In this document: piece by piece, positions 27,513 through 35,419 of the stretch
Layout: every line of letters starts with the position of its first letter
How positions within the stretch are numbered: position 1 is the stretch's first letter
NCBI GenBank assembly: GCA_963666975.2
Contig: CAXVYR010000004.1
Span: 1 to 64,000, forward strand
Direction of reading: 5' to 3'
Origin: Terriglobia bacterium
Lineage (GTDB): Bacteria; Acidobacteriota; Terriglobia; 2-12-FULL-54-10
DNA: 64,000 nt
Notes under the pieces: model-generated
Databases searched by the model: none
What the model was told of the DNA's origin: nothing
The model's input: the letters and a program-made list of their open reading frames with translations, nothing else
Translations under genes and position numbers: made by a program

Positions 27513-28127
27513 TCACTTCGATGCATCTGCTCTTCTACTGCCAGTTGATGCCAGGGCAGCCCTGGCGGCTGGGTCCACCTCGTACCAGAACTCCTCGTTT
27601 TCCCGCAGCACAATGGAAGGACAGCGGAGCAACTCCGCCGACTCGCCGCCGGAACCGTTCCGGGCGAGCAGGACGGAGCGAATCGCCTCGCGGTCGATCT
27701 CCGTGCGCGTGCGCAGATAGCGGTGAAAGCCGCCGCTGAGGAGCCACTCCAGGACCGACGCCGCGTCCTCCACCACCACGCTGCGGGAACGCCGCGCGCC
27801 GAGGCGGCCGAAAGGCAGCTCCACCGACTTGCGCCCTTCGGCCAACACTTCCTTCCGGTGCGCCCAATAAAACCGCTCGATCTGGTGCCGCAGGCTCTCC
27901 TGCTCGCGTTCCATGTCCTTGCCGGCATCGAGCGTACGTTGTTTCAACTCCGCCACCCTGCGGTTCATCCGCACCGTGAGCGCTTCCATTTGTCGTTCAA
28001 TCTCCCCCAGCCGCGCCAGGCGCAGGTTCACGTCGTCCCAGCAGCGGGGACCCGCTGCACACTGCTTCCCTTGTTGCGCTTTTGCTTGTTTCAGCCTCTT
28101 GCTCTCTGTTTTCAGTCTCTTTTTCAT
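27513..28127 (-). CDS. gam: Mu Gam-like host-nuclease inhibitor / DNA end-binding protein
   Basis: WDDVN..L..LGEI coiled coil, then FY.AHR.E....RKSVELPFGRLG.R, YLRT..EIDREAI and EEFWYE. Confidence 0.85.
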   Translation of the reverse strand: MKKRLKTESKRLKQAKAQQGKQCAAGPRCWDDVNLRLARLGEIERQMEALTVRMNRRVAELKQRTLDAGKDMEREQESLRHQIERFYWAHRKEVLAEGRKSVELPFGRLGARRSRSVVVEDAASVLEWLLSGGFHRYLRTRTEIDREAIRSVLLARNGSGGESAELLRCPSIVLRENEEFWYEVDPAARAALASTGSRRADASK

Positions 28128-28634: not shown

Positions 28635-29423
28635 ATGAATGTTTCCGAGCGGCTGAAAAATTTCCGTAAGCGCTTAAATATCAATCAATCTGAGTTAGCG
28701 GACCGGACCGGATACTCCGCGTCATCTATCAGCCACTACGAACTCGGCAGAAGAAAACCCAGCCACCGCTTCCTGGAAAAGCTGGACGAGGTGGAAGCTG
28801 CAGCGACAAAGCCCGGCGGCAAAGCCGTTGATGCGAAGCGGACCGATCTGCAAACCCTCGGGGGGCAGATTGAATCCTTGAAAAAAGAGATCGAACATCT
28901 GACGGCACGGCTCAATCCAACCGGGGCTCAGGCGGAAAAGCCGGGATTCAACCCGCCGGAGATTCGCATCTACACTAAGGAGGAATGGAAGCAGGGCACC
29001 CAGGACCGGCTGCGCTTCCAGATTCAGATTCCTGTCCTAAGGGACGAAGCGGCGGCGGGCTCTCCGCGCGAAATCGACGGGCGGGACATTGACAGCTTCA
29101 TCGCCGTGCCGTCCAAGTTCGTGCCCCGGGGGCCGACGGCTTATACGGGCATATACATCCAGGGAGACTCGATGGAGCCGGTTCTGGGCAACCGCTTCAT
29201 AGTGGTGGTTGATCACACGCACCGCGATCCGGTCCGACTGCGGGGCCGGATGGTGGCGGCGCTGGTGCAGGACGGCGTGGTGGTCAAGTGGCTGGCGCGC
29301 GAGACACGGCGCGACCGCATCGTGTTGCGCTCTCAAAACCCGGACTATGAAGACATTGTATTGGAGTCGCCGGAGACCGATCCCATCATCGGCGACGTGG
29401 TGTTCTGGTGGGGCGTGCAGTAG
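28635..29423 (+). CDS. XRE-HTH plus S24 peptidase repressor (CI/LexA-like)
   Basis: HTH LNINQSELADRTGYSASSISHYELG, Ala-Gly cleavage site AAAG, catalytic Ser in GDSMEP and catalytic Lys in VVKWL. Confidence 0.92.
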   Translation: MNVSERLKNFRKRLNINQSELADRTGYSASSISHYELGRRKPSHRFLEKLDEVEAAATKPGGKAVDAKRTDLQTLGGQIESLKKEIEHLTARLNPTGAQAEKPGFNPPEIRIYTKEEWKQGTQDRLRFQIQIPVLRDEAAAGSPREIDGRDIDSFIAVPSKFVPRGPTAYTGIYIQGDSMEPVLGNRFIVVVDHTHRDPVRLRGRMVAALVQDGVVVKWLARETRRDRIVLRSQNPDYEDIVLESPETDPIIGDVVFWWGVQ

Positions 29424-29524: not shown

Positions 29525-30349
29525 CTAACAGCCCTTCCGCAAAAACAACAGCCGCGCGACCGCCATCAGCACCAGCACACCCCCGAAGGTGCAGACCATT
29601 GTGGCGCCGGTCGGCAGATCCAGTCTTAAGGAAAGATAGACGCCGAGAGCGGAAACCAGCGTCCCCATGCCCCAGCCAACCGCCAGCCGCCGCCCGGTGG
29701 TTTCCGCAAAGAGGATGCCTCCCACCGACGGCACAATCAGATAACAGAAAACCAGCAGAACTCCGGCAATCGCTACAGCCGAGGTCACCACGACCCCGAA
29801 GGAGGCGTAGAAGAGGAAATCCCACCAGCGGAGCGACAAGCCTTGGGCTTCGGCTTCTTCCGGGTTGGCCGAAATCAACAGGAACTTCCGGCGAAAGAGA
29901 TAATGAAATGCTCCCACGGCGGCACACAGGATGGCGGTGGTGCCCACCTCGCGCCATGAGACCACCAGGATGTTGCCGACCAGCATGTCCTTCAAGTGCT
30001 CCGTTTCCCCAACGGCCTTGCTCATGGCCAGGATGGCGGCGGCGGAGGCCACGGCGTAGGTGATCCCGATGATGGCTTCCTGGGGGATGCGGCTGTCCCG
30101 GCTTCGAACCAGGGAAAAGAAAGCGGCTCCCAGGAGAGTGAAGACCAGGCTGATCCAGTATGCCTCTGCCCCATGCAGATCCACCCCGAGCAGCACGGCC
30201 ATGCTGGCCCCCAGAGCGGCGATCTGGGCCAAAGCCAGGTCCACAAAAATTACTCCCCGCTCCACCACATGAAGTCCCAGGTATGTATGAATTCCTACCA
30301 GGATGAGGCTGGCTACCAGCGGCGGCGCCAGAAAAATGAGTACGTCCAT
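29525..30349 (-). CDS. Zn/Mn-type metal ABC transporter permease (ZnuB/ABC-3-like)
   Basis: Multiple TM helices, GLHVVERGVIFVDLALAQ, EAIIGI.Y, GVLLVFCYLIVP and DLPTGA. Confidence 0.88.
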   Translation of the reverse strand: MDVLIFLAPPLVASLILVGIHTYLGLHVVERGVIFVDLALAQIAALGASMAVLLGVDLHGAEAYWISLVFTLLGAAFFSLVRSRDSRIPQEAIIGITYAVASAAAILAMSKAVGETEHLKDMLVGNILVVSWREVGTTAILCAAVGAFHYLFRRKFLLISANPEEAEAQGLSLRWWDFLFYASFGVVVTSAVAIAGVLLVFCYLIVPSVGGILFAETTGRRLAVGWGMGTLVSALGVYLSLRLDLPTGATMVCTFGGVLVLMAVARLLFLRKGC

Positions 30350-30399
30350 AATTCACTCCTGCTTCGATTCGCTCCCGGCTTCAAATCGTTCCTGCTTCC

Positions 30400-31341
30400 C
30401 TACTGCTGCCGGGCTAATGACTCCGTCAGAAGCCGAATGTTGTAGTCAAACAGTTGAAAGTAATTCGTCACTTCCGGTACGCCGCCCACCGAGGGCAGCA
30501 ACACCAAAACCTCGGCTCCCGTTTGGCGTGCAATGGCCTGCGGAGTTTTCAAGTCAAAATAAGGCTCCACGATGACCGCCTTGATGCCGTCCTGCCGCAT
30601 CTGGCGGATCAGCTCCAAAATGTGCCCTGGACTGGGCGGAATCCCCGGCTTGGGCTCGACATACCCGGCGACATGCAAGCCAAAGCGCTGCATAAAACTG
30701 GGCCAGGAGTTATGGTAGGTGACGACCTCGGTTCCCTGGAGCACAGCCATCTGCTGCTCCCATCTTTTTTCGGCCTCCTCCAACCTGCGGTCAAAATCCT
30801 CGTAGCGTTGTTGGAAATAAGCCGCGTCCTCCCGTTGCAGTTCCGTGAGCCTTTCCTGAACGGCCTTCGCGATCAGGCGTCCGTTCCGGGGATCCAGCCA
30901 ATAGTGAGGGTTGCCCAGCGGGTGAACATCCCCCATAGCGCGGGTTACCGGGCCGCTTAGCTTTTGCAAGATCACGGCCGATCGGGAAACATCCAGGTAG
31001 CCGGGAGCGCCCACTTGAATGCGGCGATTGCGGCTCCGAGTAATCAAGGGAGGCAGCCAGCCAATCTCCAATTGCAACCCCACCAGGACCAGCAAATCGG
31101 CGCGGTTCAGCTTCAGCAGGAAACTGGGCTTGGCCTCGACGAAGTGCGGGTCCTGGTAGCCGCGAGCCATGGCCTCTACCTTCACGCGGTCGCCCCCCAC
31201 TTCACGGACCAGGGCGCTCAGGTCCTGGGTGGTGGTCATGACGTTCAGGGTTTGGGCCTTGGACGGAACGGGAGCGGTCACCAGCAGCAATAGAAGAATT
31301 GTCACTCCTGCCGGCGCCCAACGCGGCGATTTTTTTACCAT
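30400..31341 (-). CDS. Zn/Mn-type ABC substrate-binding protein (ZnuA/TroA-like)
   Basis: GGAGGA then ATG at 31341. Signal peptide, DPHF, GDVHPLGNPHYWLDP, VTYH and EPKPGIPPSP.H. Confidence 0.92.
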   Translation of the reverse strand: MVKKSPRWAPAGVTILLLLLVTAPVPSKAQTLNVMTTTQDLSALVREVGGDRVKVEAMARGYQDPHFVEAKPSFLLKLNRADLLVLVGLQLEIGWLPPLITRSRNRRIQVGAPGYLDVSRSAVILQKLSGPVTRAMGDVHPLGNPHYWLDPRNGRLIAKAVQERLTELQREDAAYFQQRYEDFDRRLEEAEKRWEQQMAVLQGTEVVTYHNSWPSFMQRFGLHVAGYVEPKPGIPPSPGHILELIRQMRQDGIKAVIVEPYFDLKTPQAIARQTGAEVLVLLPSVGGVPEVTNYFQLFDYNIRLLTESLARQQ

Positions 31342-31402
31342 AGCTCCTCCCTTTACAAGACGGCTCAAAAAAGAAAACAGTTGCTTGCGCATCTCGATCC
31401 TC

Positions 31403-32713
31403 CTAGAAAGGATGGGCGCCGTGCGCGCCCAGCGAAAACAGGAACTGAAAGAGAAACTCATGGGCGGTGAAACCTTCCGCATAACGTGTGCGGCGGAGCT
31501 GTCCCCGAATCTGGCTGAACTCGCTTGGCCGGTAACTGAGCAGCAGCGACCCGCCGCTGTCGTGTTCTCGCGCCTCACGAGCGCGCTCCGACCAGTCGAA
31601 ACGCCCCCCGGCAGACCACCGGCGCGCGAACTGATATTCCGCAGAAGCAAAGAAGCCCAAGGCGCGCTGAGTAGCCGCTACTTCTTGCCGGCGGCTCCAG
31701 GCCACCTCCGCCCGCGCCAGGAAAGAACGGTAGATGGCCCTGCGCAACGGCCTCCAGCGCAGGGTGGCGTCCGCGCCGAAAAGCCGGGTGATAAAATCAG
31801 TTCCCTGGTCGTTGTGTCCGCGCGCGTAGGAGCCGCCCACTTCCAGATTGGTGGACTCGGTCAAGTCCCGGTAAGCCCTCAGCCGACCGACGGCGCTGAG
31901 GTCGCTGCGGCGGTTTGCTTGAAACAGCGTGCCGGAATCGCCGCGGTACATCTCCGCCGTGACTTCCCAGAAGGTTTCTCCCGGCACCGGCAGAATGCGG
32001 CTCACCGAAAAGCCCGCGTCCTTGATGCCTGCGTCCGCCTCCTCCGGGTCGCCTCCCAGCAGGTTGAAAGCTGCCAAGGGCCGGTCAATCCAGGGAAGTG
32101 AATGGTTGTGCAGAGCATTCACCTTTCCAAAGCCTGCCCTCATCCTGCCGGCCTTGAGAAGAAAGCCTCCGGGCAGGGCCGGGAAAGTGATATAACCCTC
32201 CTCCACCTCTACTCCTTCCTCGCCGAGCGCAACGAAGAAGTCGGCTCGGGCGTAGGGGTCGACGATAGCCTGGAGGCTGATCTCGCTCTCGGCCAGCGAC
32301 AAGGCCGCCGACGGATCAACCCGGTTGTGTCCCGACGCTCCGGTAAAGTTGCCGATCACGCCGATGTCCGGGTTGAGTATCTTGGTTTGGGAAGCGGCTC
32401 CTCCGTAGACCGGCAAGGGAGCGGACGGGGCCTGCAAATTTCCCGGCGATGCCGCCGGACTAGCCGGCTGGGCCGCAGAAGCAGTCGTCGCTGGAGCGGG
32501 AACCTCTGGTGTGGAGACAGAAGTCGCAGACAAGACCGCGTGGAGCAACTCGACTTCCGCTTCGAGGGCATGGATACGCTCCTCCATGGCCCGGAAGCGG
32601 GCTGCCAGATCATCTGCTGCGGCATCCACTCCTTGCGCCTCCACCTTCTGTACACAAAGAGCAGTAGAAACAAAACAAAGCAAGCAAACATACACAGCGA
32701 GGGTCTTCAGCAT
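31403..32713 (-). CDS. outer-membrane beta-barrel (porin-like) protein linked to metal uptake
   Basis: Signal peptide, short coiled coil, NPDIGVIGNF, VDPYARAD, EEGYITF, amphipathic strands and C-terminal LGAHGAHPF. Confidence 0.75.
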   Translation of the reverse strand: MLKTLAVYVCLLCFVSTALCVQKVEAQGVDAAADDLAARFRAMEERIHALEAEVELLHAVLSATSVSTPEVPAPATTASAAQPASPAASPGNLQAPSAPLPVYGGAASQTKILNPDIGVIGNFTGASGHNRVDPSAALSLAESEISLQAIVDPYARADFFVALGEEGVEVEEGYITFPALPGGFLLKAGRMRAGFGKVNALHNHSLPWIDRPLAAFNLLGGDPEEADAGIKDAGFSVSRILPVPGETFWEVTAEMYRGDSGTLFQANRRSDLSAVGRLRAYRDLTESTNLEVGGSYARGHNDQGTDFITRLFGADATLRWRPLRRAIYRSFLARAEVAWSRRQEVAATQRALGFFASAEYQFARRWSAGGRFDWSERAREAREHDSGGSLLLSYRPSEFSQIRGQLRRTRYAEGFTAHEFLFQFLFSLGAHGAHPF

Positions 32714-32763
32714 GTTTCCCCCTCCATAATGAAATTCAATGGCTGCGCACTGTGCCGCGACAA

Positions 32764-32856
32764 CAACTTTTTCAACAACTTTGTCGCGATCACAACTTTG
32801 TCGCGCAACTTTGTCGCGATCACAACTTTGTCGCGATCACAACTTTGTCATGACAA
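32764..32856. repeat. 17-bp tandem repeat array in the operon leader
   Basis: CAACTTTGTCGCGATCA: three full copies plus three partial or variant units, with no unique spacers. Confidence 0.9.
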
Positions 32857-32933
32857 CAGCAGGCAGCCGGACTGCCTCGCAAAGTGCGGAACAGGATTTC
32901 ACCAGTAACGAGTCAATTGGAAAACGGATTCGT

Positions 32934-33311
32934 TTAGACGGAAGGAGGCGCGCGGATAAGACGGGCGGCCAGTGCAGTCTGCACAGTGGCCGTAGCGGGA
33001 ACTCGCTCAGTCATTTTGAGTGAGCCCCGTGGAGCCGTAAAAAGGGCACTGCTCAGGAAAGCGGGAAAATGGTGGTGATGGGATGAGGCGCAGCCATGGC
33101 CCGGTATTTTGCAATCGGAATGGCTGTCTGGCGCGCCGGTGCCGCCCTCCTCAGAGAGAGCGCCGATCGAGATGCTGGAATCGTGGACCGGATGAGGAGT
33201 CGCCACCAAGTGCAACCCCATATCCCAGACAAACAACAGCAGCAGCAGCGTAGCCAGACGCTGCCGGAAGAGCTTCGACCTGTTGGCCAACTGAAGGAAA
33301 CTTTGCATCAT
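32934..33311 (-). CDS. His/Cys-rich membrane-anchored upstream ORF with C-terminal RAPP arrest motif (DUF2946/CruR-like architecture)
   Basis: Basic N-terminus, TM LATLLLLLFVWDMGLHLV, then HSDCKIPGHGCASSHHHH, ending LIRAPPSV-stop. It is co-oriented upstream of the metal uptake genes. Confidence 0.75.
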   Translation of the reverse strand: MMQSFLQLANRSKLFRQRLATLLLLLFVWDMGLHLVATPHPVHDSSISIGALSEEGGTGAPDSHSDCKIPGHGCASSHHHHFPAFLSSALFTAPRGSLKMTERVPATATVQTALAARLIRAPPSV

Positions 33312-33312
33312 T

Positions 33313-33382
33313 GTTCAGTATCAGCGGTTCAGTATCACAGGTTCCGTATCAGCAGTTCAGTATCAGCGGTTCAGTTTCAGGA
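33313..33382. repeat. 5 x 14-bp tandem repeat abutting the uORF start codon
   Basis: GTTCAGTATCAGCG, GTTCAGTATCACAG, GTTCCGTATCAGCA, GTTCAGTATCAGCG and GTTCAGTTTCAGGA. Confidence 0.9.
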
Positions 33383-33436
33383 ACCAGCTTCAATGACTAG
33401 TTTGAATGTAACAAGCCTCCTGGTTCCGGTCAAGGC

Positions 33437-35419
33437 TTACAACGCCCGCACAATCTCCTCCACGGCCAGAGGGTTTTCGAGAGCGGAGAGGTCGCCCGTT
33501 TCCTCTCCCAGGTAGGCGGCGCGGACGACGCGGCGCATGAGCTTGGCGTTGCGCGTCTTGGGCAGGTCGCCGACAAACTTCACCGTGCGGGGCTTCAGCG
33601 GCTTGCCTAGAGCTTGCGCCACGCACTCCCGCAGTTCTTCCCGCAGTTCATCTCGCCTCAGTTCGTCCCGCAGCGCTTCATCGCCCGCGCGGCCCGGCCT
33701 CAACACACAGAAACACGCCAGCTCCTGCCCCTTGACCGGGTCGGGAACTCCCACGCATGCCGCCTCGGCCACCGCTTCATGCCCCACCAGGACCGATTCC
33801 ACCTCGGCCGGGCCCAGGCGCTTGCCCGCCACCTTGATGGTGTCATCCGAGCGCCCCAGGATGTACCACATCCCGTCGCCGTCCACCGCCGCCCAGTCGC
33901 CATGCGTCCACAGACCAGGGAATCGCTCCCAATAGGTTTCCCGGTACCGCTCCGTGTCCTTCCAGAAGCCGCGCGTCATCCCGATCCAGGGACGGCGGAT
34001 CACCAGCTCGCCCACATGCCCTCGAACGGGCCGCCCGTTTTCGTCCACCACGTCGGCGGCCATGCCAGGCACAGGTCCGGAGAATGCCGTGGGCTTGAGC
34101 GGCAGCAGCAGGTTTCCTCCCAGGATGCCTCCTGAGATTTCCGTCCCGCCTGAGTAGTTGATGATGGGAAGCCGCCCGCCGCCGACCGTCTGAAAGAACC
34201 AGTTCCAGGGGTCTGGATTCCATGGCTCGCCCGTGGAGCCGAGAATCCGTAGCGAAGACAACTCGTGCTGCCTGACCGGCTCTTCGCCGTGCTGCATCAA
34301 GGAGCGCACCAAGGTGGGAGAGATTCCCAAAACCGAAACGCGGTGCCGCGCGACGAGGCTCCACAAACGGTCCGGGGCCGGGTAGTCCGGAGCGCCATCG
34401 TAGAGCAACAAGGTAGCCCCCAGCAACGTGCCGCCATAAACCAGCCATGGGCCCATCATCCAGCCCATATCGGTCAGCCAGTAAACCGTGTCTTCCCCGT
34501 GAACGTCCATGCAGTGGGCCATGTCTTGCGCCGCCTTGATGGGAAACCCGCAGTGAGTGTGCACCGCGCCTTTGGGCTCACCCGTGGTGCCTGAGGTGTA
34601 GATGAGCATCAGGGGATCTTCCGCGTCGGTAGTTTCGGTTGCACTCGGAGAGGACTCCGAAGAGATCAGATCGTGCCACCAATGGTCCCGTCCGTTTGTC
34701 CATGCTATTTTCATTCCGGTGCGACGGAGGACGATCAGGTGTTCGAGCGAGGGGGTAAGCGCGGCTGCCTGGTCGGCCACTTCCTTCATTGCAACCGTGT
34801 GGCCGCGCCGGTAGAAACCATCGGCGGTGAATAACGCCCTGGCCCCGGCGGAGGTCAGGCGCGAAGCAACCGCCTTGGCGCCGTAGCCGGAAAACAACGG
34901 CAAAAAGATAGCCCCGATCTTAGCGATGGCGAACAGAGCGATCACGATCTCCGGCGTCATGGGCATGAAGACGCCGATCACATCGCCCTTTTTCAACCCC
35001 AGTTGCCGCAGCGCCCCGGCCATTCGGCTGACTTCCCCGCAGAGCGCCCCGTAGGTCAGCGTGCGCTCGCCGCCCTCTTCACCCTCCCAGCGGATCGCAA
35101 TGCGGTCCTCGACTGGCGTGCCCATCCACTTGTCCAGGCAGTTGTCCACAATGTTCATGCGGCCGCCTATGCACCATCGCGCCCAGGGCTCGCCCTGCGA
35201 TGTGTCCAGGATTTTTCGGTAAGGCGTGGAGAAACGGATGCCGAGGTCCTGAATCACCGCCTCCCAGAACCATTCGATGTCTTCCGTTGACCGCCGCATG
35301 AGTTCTTCAAACGAGGCGATGTTGTGCGCCTTCATGAAGGCGGCCAGCCGGCTGCGCCCCGCCTGCTCCGGCGTAGGCCGCCAGACAATTTCTCCTCCGA
35401 AGTCCACTTGTGGCTCCAT
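33437..35419 (-). CDS. acetyl-CoA synthetase-like AMP-dependent acyl-CoA ligase
   Basis: LIYTSGTTGEPKG, ILGRSDDTIKVAGKRLG.AEVES and LPKTRNAKLMRR. Confidence 0.92.
   Translation of the reverse strand: MEPQVDFGGEIVWRPTPEQAGRSRLAAFMKAHNIASFEELMRRSTEDIEWFWEAVIQDLGIRFSTPYRKILDTSQGEPWARWCIGGRMNIVDNCLDKWMGTPVEDRIAIRWEGEEGGERTLTYGALCGEVSRMAGALRQLGLKKGDVIGVFMPMTPEIVIALFAIAKIGAIFLPLFSGYGAKAVASRLTSAGARALFTADGFYRRGHTVAMKEVADQAAALTPSLEHLIVLRRTGMKIAWTNGRDHWWHDLISSESSPSATETTDAEDPLMLIYTSGTTGEPKGAVHTHCGFPIKAAQDMAHCMDVHGEDTVYWLTDMGWMMGPWLVYGGTLLGATLLLYDGAPDYPAPDRLWSLVARHRVSVLGISPTLVRSLMQHGEEPVRQHELSSLRILGSTGEPWNPDPWNWFFQTVGGGRLPIINYSGGTEISGGILGGNLLLPLKPTAFSGPVPGMAADVVDENGRPVRGHVGELVIRRPWIGMTRGFWKDTERYRETYWERFPGLWTHGDWAAVDGDGMWYILGRSDDTIKVAGKRLGPAEVESVLVGHEAVAEAACVGVPDPVKGQELACFCVLRPGRAGDEALRDELRRDELREELRECVAQALGKPLKPRTVKFVGDLPKTRNAKLMRRVVRAAYLGEETGDLSALENPLAVEEIVRAL

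Follow-up and report, generated by a model that had tools for sequence, protein, structure and literature searches.

The minus strand of a 64,000-nucleotide stretch of Terriglobia bacterium DNA (assembly GCA_963666975.2, contig CAXVYR010000004.1, positions 1 to 64,000; hereafter the window) carries a small open reading frame (ORF) directly upstream of a putative metal-uptake operon, and we examined this ORF as a candidate metal-responsive ribosome-arrest leader. The leader ORF (33311-32934, minus strand) encodes 125 residues with a basic N-terminus and ends in LIRAPPSV-stop, as the first-pass annotation of the window had described; the ATG of the next co-oriented gene, at 32713, follows its stop codon after the 220 nt reported there. 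This gene (31403..32713, minus strand) encodes a 436-aa protein with a signal peptide, an N-terminal coiled coil and the C-terminal sequence ...GAHGAHPF, and behind it lie genes for a ZnuA-type substrate-binding protein (30400..31338, minus strand; PF01297, E 2.5e-54) and an ABC-3 (ZnuB-type) permease (29525..30349, minus strand; PF00950, E 9.5e-33). Pfam supports the earlier naming of the latter two, while the 436-aa product, whose sequence makes an outer-membrane porin plausible, matched no Pfam family (E<=1, including Porin_O_P PF07396) and no NCBIfam family.

Basic residues near the N-terminus of the leader (R11, K13, R16 and R18) are followed by a hydrophobic stretch, and AlphaFold2, run on a 32-sequence alignment, returned a single confident helix at residues 3-36 with coil for the rest (predicted local distance difference test, pLDDT, 82-97 at residues 11-40 and 46-63 outside the helix), in line with the one transmembrane (TM) helix proposed previously. 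Topology was judged from the basic N-terminus, the hydrophobicity and this helix; by the positive-inside rule, again, the hydrophobic helix of codons 19-36 (33204..33257, minus strand), which holds the near-invariant D30 and H34, would have its N-terminus inside. Codons 67-81 (33069..33113, minus strand) encode a candidate metal-ligand cluster, C67-x4-H72-x5-H78HHH81, picked out by alignment conservation; the Cys and His residues of the cluster in the window leader are C67, H72, C74 and H78-H81. The putative arrest site R120-A121-P122-P123 (CGC GCG CCT CCT), assigned from the sequence and the family motif, occupies 32954-32943 (minus strand), so that the RAPP codons are present as claimed but one base away from the 32955-32944 first given for them. 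By analogy with the toeprints in PMC12992588, P122 would occupy the P site and P123 the A site at the arrest. A PDB sequence search with the leader profile gave only coiled-coil or His-tag noise.

A C-terminal R[AG]PP alone is not rare: among the 25,705 six-frame ORFs of 50-300 aa that this 4.23-Mb genome contains, 35 carry one within their last 16 residues. Only 2 of the 35 have a TM-like N-terminus as well; both stand before metal-transport operons, and one is the window leader. The real evidence beyond chance is the conservation of the leader, as judged from sequence comparison. The close family comprises 19 proteins, namely the window's own and 18 others at 76-88% identity, and a search with the leader profile at E<=1e-3 found 31 cluster representatives among 1.84 billion, all of 106-180 aa. 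Identity among relatives drops to 23% with the ORF and its motif islands still kept, and the ratio of nonsynonymous to synonymous substitution (dN/dS) of the window leader is 0.25 against its counterpart at locus L015 and 0.35 against that at L002. Leader copies occur in 9 of the 14 genomes of the order, the window's own counted. In an even sample of the phylum they were seen in 4 of 401 genomes, one being the window's own and two being marginal matches with internal stops, so the family, though real, is narrow. It has no model in Pfam or NCBIfam, and the window copy is the only one in this genome. Part of the window is present in 20 of 21 listed sequencing runs, two of these 20 being labelled RNA.

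It is scarcely credible, given this conservation, that the leader ORF is fortuitous, lying in promoter or 5' sequence, and that the actual control is transcriptional, by a Fur/Zur-family repressor. The genome does have one FUR-family gene (C4:552849-553211, 520 kb away), and inverted repeats, GGAACCAG...CTGGTTCC, flank the promoter described below; the retention of ORF and motif islands down to 23% identity contradicts this account, as do the signs of codon-level selection, and transcriptional control could coexist with the leader without explaining it. The FUR-family gene adjoins an ORF whose product, like the porin-like protein, combines a signal peptide with an N-terminal coiled coil. The L002 leader (L002:6001-6378), a near-identical copy, departs from the family at three otherwise invariant positions (G32E, H34R and P70Q) and lies among transposase/integrase (insertion sequence) genes, with a 32-aa ZnuB remnant after its TonB-dependent receptor gene; its dN/dS against L015 is about 1, and it may be a decaying copy.

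In the 32-sequence alignment (mean column identity 28%), D30, H34, C67, P70, H72, H78-H81, R120, P122 and P123 are invariant or nearly so, D30 being invariant and H34 kept in at least 90% of the sequences. Motif and spacer lengths were counted on 58 unique sequences, 54 of which contain both motifs. The C-terminal motif of these 54 is RAPP in 43, RGPP in 8, RAPS in 2 and RSPP in 1, which gives R(A/G)PP in 51/54, and it is followed by 1-14 residues (2-3 in 44/54). The cluster pattern Cx4Hx5HH is present in 52/54, and exactly 38 residues separate the last His from the Arg in 52/54, with a spacer sequence that is poorly conserved; a spacer fixed in length and free in sequence fits a ruler better than a fold. 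Among 56 unique sequences, C67 and H72 are each kept in 53, and C74 is a Cys in 27. The first-pass annotation had taken Cx6C plus four His as the ligands. Both C67-x6-C74 and H78-H81 are indeed found in the window leader, but because C74 is kept in only half of the family as a Cys the conserved ligand set would instead be C-x4-H-x5-HHHH, perhaps together with D30/H34, and the HPVH stretch also pointed out there is not conserved in the alignment.

RAPP and RGPP are the most versatile and strongest arrest cores, RSPP being partly permissive. Both motifs are avoided in proteomes but over-represented towards the C-terminal end of small proteins that are secreted or carry a TM segment, and the ribosome arrests with one Pro codon in the P site and the other in the A site (PMC12992588). 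The Ala-to-Gly (8) and Ala-to-Ser (1) swaps of the leader family are those found arrest-competent in that study. A different explanation for the same conserved features is a stable protein product, anchored in the membrane, that binds metal in the periplasm as an accessory to the uptake system, for instance as a metallochaperone or sensor partner; RAPP would then be incidental or would only mark a targeting pause. We regard this as improbable. A conserved TM helix with D30/H34 and a Cys/His cluster, a dN/dS of 0.25-0.35 against near relatives and a location beside transport genes would all be expected of such a protein, but the chain beyond the helix is predicted as coil at low pLDDT, and the 38-residue spacer is constrained in length and not in sequence. 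Moreover, the 1,673 long ORFs of this genome contain just 9 instances of R[AG]PP, a motif that is counter-selected in proteomes (PMC12992588), yet in the family it is nearly invariant and always close to the C-terminus, and no Shine-Dalgarno (SD) sequence was found before the leader ORF, whereas the downstream genes have strong ones.

The surroundings of the leader were compared across 28 distinct loci, of which 3 were dropped at contig ends. In all 25 assessable loci the leader lies co-oriented upstream of metal-transport genes. The next co-oriented gene encodes a TonB-dependent receptor with a CarboxypepD_reg domain in 12 loci and the same receptor type, 656 nt away, in 1 locus; in 11 loci it encodes a porin-like homologue, followed by ZnuA and ZnuB where the contig is long enough, and in 1 locus (L037) it opens an OEP-CzcB-CzcA-like efflux operon. 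The 11 porin-type loci agree with the expectation that upstream ORFs (uORFs) with the TM helix, His/Cys cluster and RAPP would recur before orthologous porin-like genes. L030 and L035 probably show the operon in full, in the order leader-receptor-porin-ZnuA. Most loci are flanked by the same neighbours, an AMP-binding enzyme gene on the upstream side and, downstream, a convergent S24-HTH gene; the site is thus syntenic, and it is the cargo behind the leader that has changed. The distance from leader to next gene is 105-253 nt in most receptor-type loci and 53-57 nt in the porin-type loci, compared with 220 nt in the window. From these gene orders, the conserved output appears to be an outer-membrane channel, either a ZnuD-like TonB receptor or a porin-like protein. 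The core idea, that a RAPP arrest leader with a metal-ligand cluster controls metal transport downstream, fits the comparative evidence of a near-invariant R(A/G)PP, the 38-residue spacer and a fixed place before outer-membrane metal-uptake genes, and its details are corrected; Zn/Ni/Co/Mn ABC-type uptake, the output originally proposed, is encoded here by ZnuA and ZnuB, but what is conserved is the channel, and one relative heads an efflux operon.

That the leader might instead be a secretion or insertion monitor of the SecM, ApdA or ApdP type, whose arrest is freed by Sec/YidC pulling and which reports export capacity and not metal, was also weighed against these loci. The family shares with this class the RAPP core, an N-terminal localisation signal and its small size (PMC12992588), but no sec or yidC gene was found downstream of the leader in any of the 25 assessable loci, and the invariant Cys/His cluster at its fixed distance would be unexplained; this makes the monitor very unlikely.

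Leaders before efflux genes were seen in two settings. Two paralogous family leaders lie about 7 kb apart on one metagenome contig (L037:4444-9325 and L034:4456-4857), of which the L037 leader precedes an OEP-CzcB/NccB-CusA/CzcA-like efflux operon, CzcB/CzcA-like by best match, and the L034 leader stands at the contig end. The genome of the window has a second RAPP leader candidate outside the window (G000:C3:208208-208636, minus strand; L060:5709-6137), of 142 aa, with a TM-like N-terminus, rich in His and without Cys, that ends in SPRAPPR-stop (CGA GCC CCT CCT) and lies about 107 nt before an OEP-HlyD_D23-ACR_tran (CzcCBA-like) efflux operon. It has 5 relatives at 73-84% identity in which PRAPP is invariant, and it belongs to no Pfam family. 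CC2720 of Caulobacter, a small DUF2946 ORF annotated as hypothetical and located directly before the Zn/Cd-type resistance-nodulation-division efflux operon czrCBA (PMC4176598), parallels the arrangement of L037 and of the second leader candidate, although it is from a different family.

The metal was approached through the transported cargo. The TonB-dependent receptors of the relatives have ZnuD (NF038289) as their best family (E 1e-66 to 1e-69), at 223-233 bits and so far below its cut-off of 950 bits, which denotes resemblance and not membership; against the TonB-copper model the same receptors reach E 1e-14 to 1e-21. For the ZnuA-type protein the best NCBIfam match is AztC (113 bits, below the cut-off of 350) and the best PDB matches are 2ov1/1pq4, a Synechocystis zinc-binding protein, with the His residues of DPH, NPH.W and YH.SW aligned. 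These three His we take to be the zinc ligands of Synechocystis ZnuA. Manganese-binding structures score almost equal to the zinc-binding ones. The permease at 29525-30349 is the only ABC-3 permease of the genome, and with a ZnuA-family protein beside it the locus has the binding-protein and permease components of a ZnuABC-type (cluster A-I) importer. No ABC ATPase (ZnuC) gene follows znuB in any znuB locus examined, the rest of the genome not having been searched for one. As in Zur-controlled znuABC/ZnuD systems, there are a ZnuA-type protein and an ABC-3 permease, and in relatives a ZnuD-like TonB receptor; unlike in those systems, no Zur box was identified here, ZnuC is missing beside ZnuB, and the scores stay below the NCBIfam equivalog cut-offs. 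Because the receptors best match ZnuD and the substrate-binding protein aligns to a zinc-binding protein, zinc is the most likely sensed metal, by gene association only.

The porin-like protein is kept in 10 loci at 61-69% identity; its naming draws on this conservation, on the signal peptide and C-terminal sequence given above, and on database neighbours. Its nearest language-model Atlas clusters carry the automatic names zinc-regulated outer membrane receptor and Porin O/P, a lead only, and one cluster among these neighbours has PF07396 in 22% of its members. A PDB sequence search with the porin-like profile gave only coiled-coil or His-tag noise, and an AlphaFold2 model from a 10-sequence alignment was set aside as unusable (pLDDT 34.4).

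We compared the leader family with the arrest leaders described so far. CruR (Bp2923) of Bordetella pertussis is a DUF2946 uORF with a CXXC motif and a RAPP three residues from its end; the CXXC-RAPP spacing of 45 residues is needed for regulation, and copper acting through CXXC relieves the arrest, so that Rho can terminate transcription ahead of a TonB receptor gene (PMC9426467). The window leader resembles it in being a small exported or TM-anchored uORF whose product is predicted to be poorly structured, with RAPP two residues from the end, a fixed distance between metal motif and RAPP (45 residues from C74 and 38 from the last His) and a long spacer to the next gene (162 nt for CruR), the CruR operon likewise starting with a TonB-dependent receptor. 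CutF of Rhodobacter capsulatus, a DUF2946-like protein with CXXXC and an EF-P-sensitive PPP, stalls at PPP when copper is bound, which melts a stem-loop hiding the cutO ribosome-binding site and turns on a detoxifying oxidase (bioRxiv 10.1101/2025.02.05.636593). CutF thus offers a parallel for a nascent exported leader that senses metal and for a C-terminal stall that frees a hidden SD of the next gene; it differs in that the anti-SD here would lie inside the arrest codons and that the output here is mostly uptake.

The first-pass annotation had drawn an analogy with the DUF2946-family uORF CruR; membership of that family is not borne out by sequence comparison. DUF2946 (PF11162, gathering score 23.7 bits) gave no match to the window ORF at E<=1 and none on the leader ORF in a six-frame genome search; 0/32 family members reached the cut-off and 4/32 matched below it (best 15.2 bits, E 0.037). 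An hhalign comparison with 9 acidobacterial DUF2946-type proteins (7 above cut-off) aligned only 17 columns of the TM helix, at a probability of 76.7%. The leader family lacks the CXXC/CXXXC copper motif of DUF2946 and has C-x4-H-x5-HHHH in its place, likely for Zn and not Cu; it shares with DUF2946 the C-terminal RAPP at a fixed distance from a metal motif and an N-terminal export signal or N-in TM helix. It would accordingly appear to be separate from DUF2946, or very diverged from it, with a CruR/CutF-like architecture. DUF6153 (PF19650) gave matches below threshold in 4/32 members (best E 1.4e-4), none above cut-off in the 401 phylum genomes, and no mention was found in the literature. With the ApdA/ApdP class and other RAPP/RGPP uORFs the family has in common the core motif near the end of a small protein, a localisation signal and a co-oriented gene downstream (PMC12992588; PMC10951233).

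The general class is already published. RAPP/RGPP uORFs are over-represented before TonB receptors and copper-related genes, and Streptomyces uORFs of this kind with conserved Cys/His have been proposed as metal sensors (PMC12992588). Zinc, porins and ABC transporters are unmentioned in that source, although its supplementary lists may include such ORFs. The leader family, the 38-residue ruler and the codon lock described below do not appear in the text of it that was examined. Literature searches found nothing that joins arrest peptide, zinc and TonB-dependent receptor, no zinc leader under DUF2946 and zinc, and nothing closer around CruR, CutF, uORFs, nickel and zinc. As far as could be seen, the ruler, the ligand set, the zinc-type cargo and the codon lock are new relative to the literature examined.

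The codon usage of the arrest motif is constrained. The first Pro codon of R(A/G)PP is CCT in 26/28 loci (25/27 without the duplicate L031) and in 12/14 clusters formed at 60% identity, the exceptions being L022 (RAPS) and L028 (CCC CCC). In the same sequences CCT is used in 2/25 cases at the invariant P70, in 4/23 at P83 and for 16% of other Pro codons, while P123 uses all four codons and His codons are split about evenly. The long ORFs of the genome have CCT in 14% of Pro codons, in 26% at the first position of Pro-Pro and in 28% at [AG]PP, compared with 0/9 at R[AG]PP; the second leader candidate has CCT CCT too, and the acidobacterial DUF2946 genes have CCT in 4 of the 8 read. CCU is not a general need of RAPP arrest, because the RAPP of CruR is encoded by frequent codons (PMC9426467), in contrast to the lock seen here. 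CCU followed by CC gives CCUCC, the core anti-SD sequence.

Folding predictions place this sequence opposite the start of the next gene. The predicted anti-SD CUCCUUCCGU (32938..32947, minus strand), within and just after the RAPP codons, would pair with 32718-32727, which includes the SD GGAGGGGG of the porin-like gene (32718..32725, minus strand; assigned from sequence and folding). Predicted pairing probabilities were 0.76-0.97 in the SD core and fell to 0.47-0.69 at the two pairs that flank it; the duplex had an energy of -15.5 kcal/mol, and the fold of a 301-nt segment had z = -2.38. Across loci, SD pairing with the RAPP region was predicted at P>=0.6 in 18/25. Recoding of the Pro-Pro pair (16 codon pairs, weighted by genome usage) lowered the expected pairing by at least 0.2 in 11 loci, and when the footprint of a stalled ribosome was forced unpaired SD pairing was lower in 5/10 loci tested (L015, 0.99 to 0.41). 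These models suggest that the leader may act at least partly by SD masking.

Upstream of the leader, TTGACC-17 nt-TACATT with a TG before the -10 (33405..33433, minus strand) forms a sigma-70-like promoter (1 site against 0.2 expected from shuffles) and was the only promoter-like site in a scan of 32600-33520; its position gives a 5' untranslated region of about 85-90 nt. Inspection by eye showed a TTGACC...TACATT/TACGTT block in L015 and L002 as well. The scan returned no terminator-like site on the minus strand and no further promoter between the leader and the porin-like gene, and an Rfam scan of 32500-33600 gave no family, an IRES_Bip match at 15.2 bits against a gathering score of 40 being dismissed as chance. 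The inverted repeat GGAACCAG ... CTGGTTCC brackets the -10 region (33385-33430, minus strand) and may be an operator; variants of it, GGGACCAG ... CTGGTC, occur in L015 and L002. The 5' untranslated region consists, up to the ATG, of degenerate 14-nt repeats (33313..33380, minus strand; CTGAWACTGAAC-like, 4.9 copies by repeat scan), whose number differs in L015 and L002. The same scan found a 17-nt tandem array, GACAAAGTTGTGATCGC, of 4.6 copies in the 220-nt spacer (32775..32849, minus strand); with about 1.5 copies in L015, it is probably a recent local expansion. The notion that the two arrays are dispersed elements was rejected, as both are unique to this locus and the 17-mer is nowhere else in the genome. 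Seven relatives (L017, L019, L020, L026, L030, L035 and L039) have a conserved GCATCCAAnTGTGATAA block 10-25 nt before the start codon, which would make the transcript leader of this subgroup very short.

Near the 3' end of the operon lies an HTH-S24 (LexA/CI-like) gene (28635-29423, plus strand), and just past it a Mu Gam-like gene (27513-28127, minus strand; PF07352, E 5.3e-24). Where the contig reaches, the next gene after znuB is the convergent S24-HTH gene; this neighbour is kept in most relative loci, whether the cargo is a TonB-dependent receptor or porin-ZnuAB, and L017 has a Gam-like gene too.

Taken as a whole, the sequence evidence points to the 125-aa ORF being a RAPP-class arrest leader that couples metal, most likely Zn(II), to expression of an outer-membrane channel and ZnuA/ZnuB, and we give this reading a probability of roughly 0.6. 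According to the proposed scheme, a single promoter (33433-33405) would drive the leader together with the porin, znuA and znuB genes. During translation of the leader, a ribosome would arrest when Pro122 (CCU) occupies the P site and Pro123 the A site, and would cover CUCCUUCCGU (32947-32938), which otherwise would pair with the porin SD (32725-32718); because the arrested ribosome hides the anti-SD, the downstream genes would stay translatable. At the arrest, C67-x4-H72-x5-HHHH would sit at a distance of 41-55 residues from the P site. This corresponds to the tunnel exit or the entrance of the translocon and not clearly to the periplasm; the metal may be met on the cytoplasmic side (as viewed for CruR) or the periplasmic side (as viewed for CutF and in the first-pass annotation). 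Metal binding there, possibly with D30/H34 on the membrane helix, may compact or pull the chain and free the arrest. Termination would then follow three codons on, the anti-SD would pair again, and the uptake genes would be off at sufficient metal. By analogy, the scheme would combine a CruR-like logic with a CutF/SecM-like RNA output.

The release step has a synthetic proof of principle. The ADR1a zinc finger, fused to SecM, releases arrest in vitro by Zn-dependent folding near the tunnel exit (PMC4571824), which likewise depends on Zn-driven compaction of a short Cys/His segment; that construct is artificial and has no membrane anchor, and its optimum is at 24-26 residues compared with about 41 here. 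Several observations, this one included, speak against the proposed scheme. The ADR1a effect peaks 24-26 residues from the arrest point and not at about 40 (PMC4571824), so the leader must have another geometry, in which the membrane helix or the translocon, for example, takes part. The L037 relative heads an efflux operon, for which the opposite polarity would be needed; since this leader and the second one before Czc-like pumps call for induction by metal, either the metal effect or the RNA logic would differ there. As a ligand set, the Cys/His cluster would suit Ni, Co, Cd or Cu just as well. Neither RAPP nor CCU is universal, as L022 has RAPS and L028 has CCC CCC. On the side of the RNA, little or no SD pairing was predicted in 7/25 loci (L002, L019, L022, L026, L032, L033 and L037), the majority of which have 53-nt spacers; in only 7/26 transcripts does the RAPP region rank first as anti-SD; and the pairing shifts with the folding windows chosen (L017, 0.24 against 0.71). 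In the window itself, recoding the Pro codons barely alters pairing (0.96 against 0.86), and forcing the stalled-ribosome footprint unpaired lowers it only to 0.74. Because of the unpaired loci, the few transcripts in which RAPP is the best anti-SD and the dependence on how the folding windows are defined, SD masking is held here as a moderately supported hypothesis and not as a result.

The same arrest leader could have a different output, namely Rho-dependent attenuation in the spacer, with the stalled ribosome blocking Rho loading. Among characterised leaders with an uptake receptor gene behind them, CruR is the closest, and this is the route shown for it (PMC9426467); the route would also suit the spacers of 105-253 nt in most receptor-type loci and the 7/25 loci from which SD pairing is absent. 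We consider it rather unlikely, although it and the scheme proposed above are not mutually exclusive. The window spacer is not C-rich or G-poor (C 0.21, G 0.28; best 60-nt C-minus-G 0.07) and so lacks the C-rich stretch expected by comparison with CruR; a search for rut-like C-rich sequence found C-minus-G above 0.2 in only 2/26 spacers; the porin-type spacers measure only 53-57 nt; and the CCU codon lock would be left without a reason.

Returning to the zinc-coupled arrest leader, we tentatively extend it to a more specific picture, which is possible but less likely than not. The leader may be a natural zinc-operated cotranslational switch in which the 15-residue Cys/His cluster, 38 residues from RAPP, folds round Zn(II) as it leaves the ribosome and pulls the chain from its arrest, as a counterpart of ADR1a-SecM, with the arrest codons CCU-CC doubling as an anti-SD. 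It would be a portable leader, placed before import operons (TonB receptor, porin-ZnuAB) as well as export operons (CzcCBA), and may replace Zur in a lineage with a single FUR-family gene.

Metal-sensing arrest leaders characterised experimentally so far, CruR and CutF, respond to copper only. If the proposed leader is what it appears to be, nascent-chain metal sensing would be a general strategy, used convergently, and the locus would offer a compact system of about 600 nt, needing no protein factor, for signal transfer from outside the tunnel to the peptidyl-transferase centre. The synonymous CCU lock provides a directly testable link from the arrest site to the mRNA output, and for annotating zinc-uptake loci in the poorly studied Acidobacteriota the leader family may be a useful marker.

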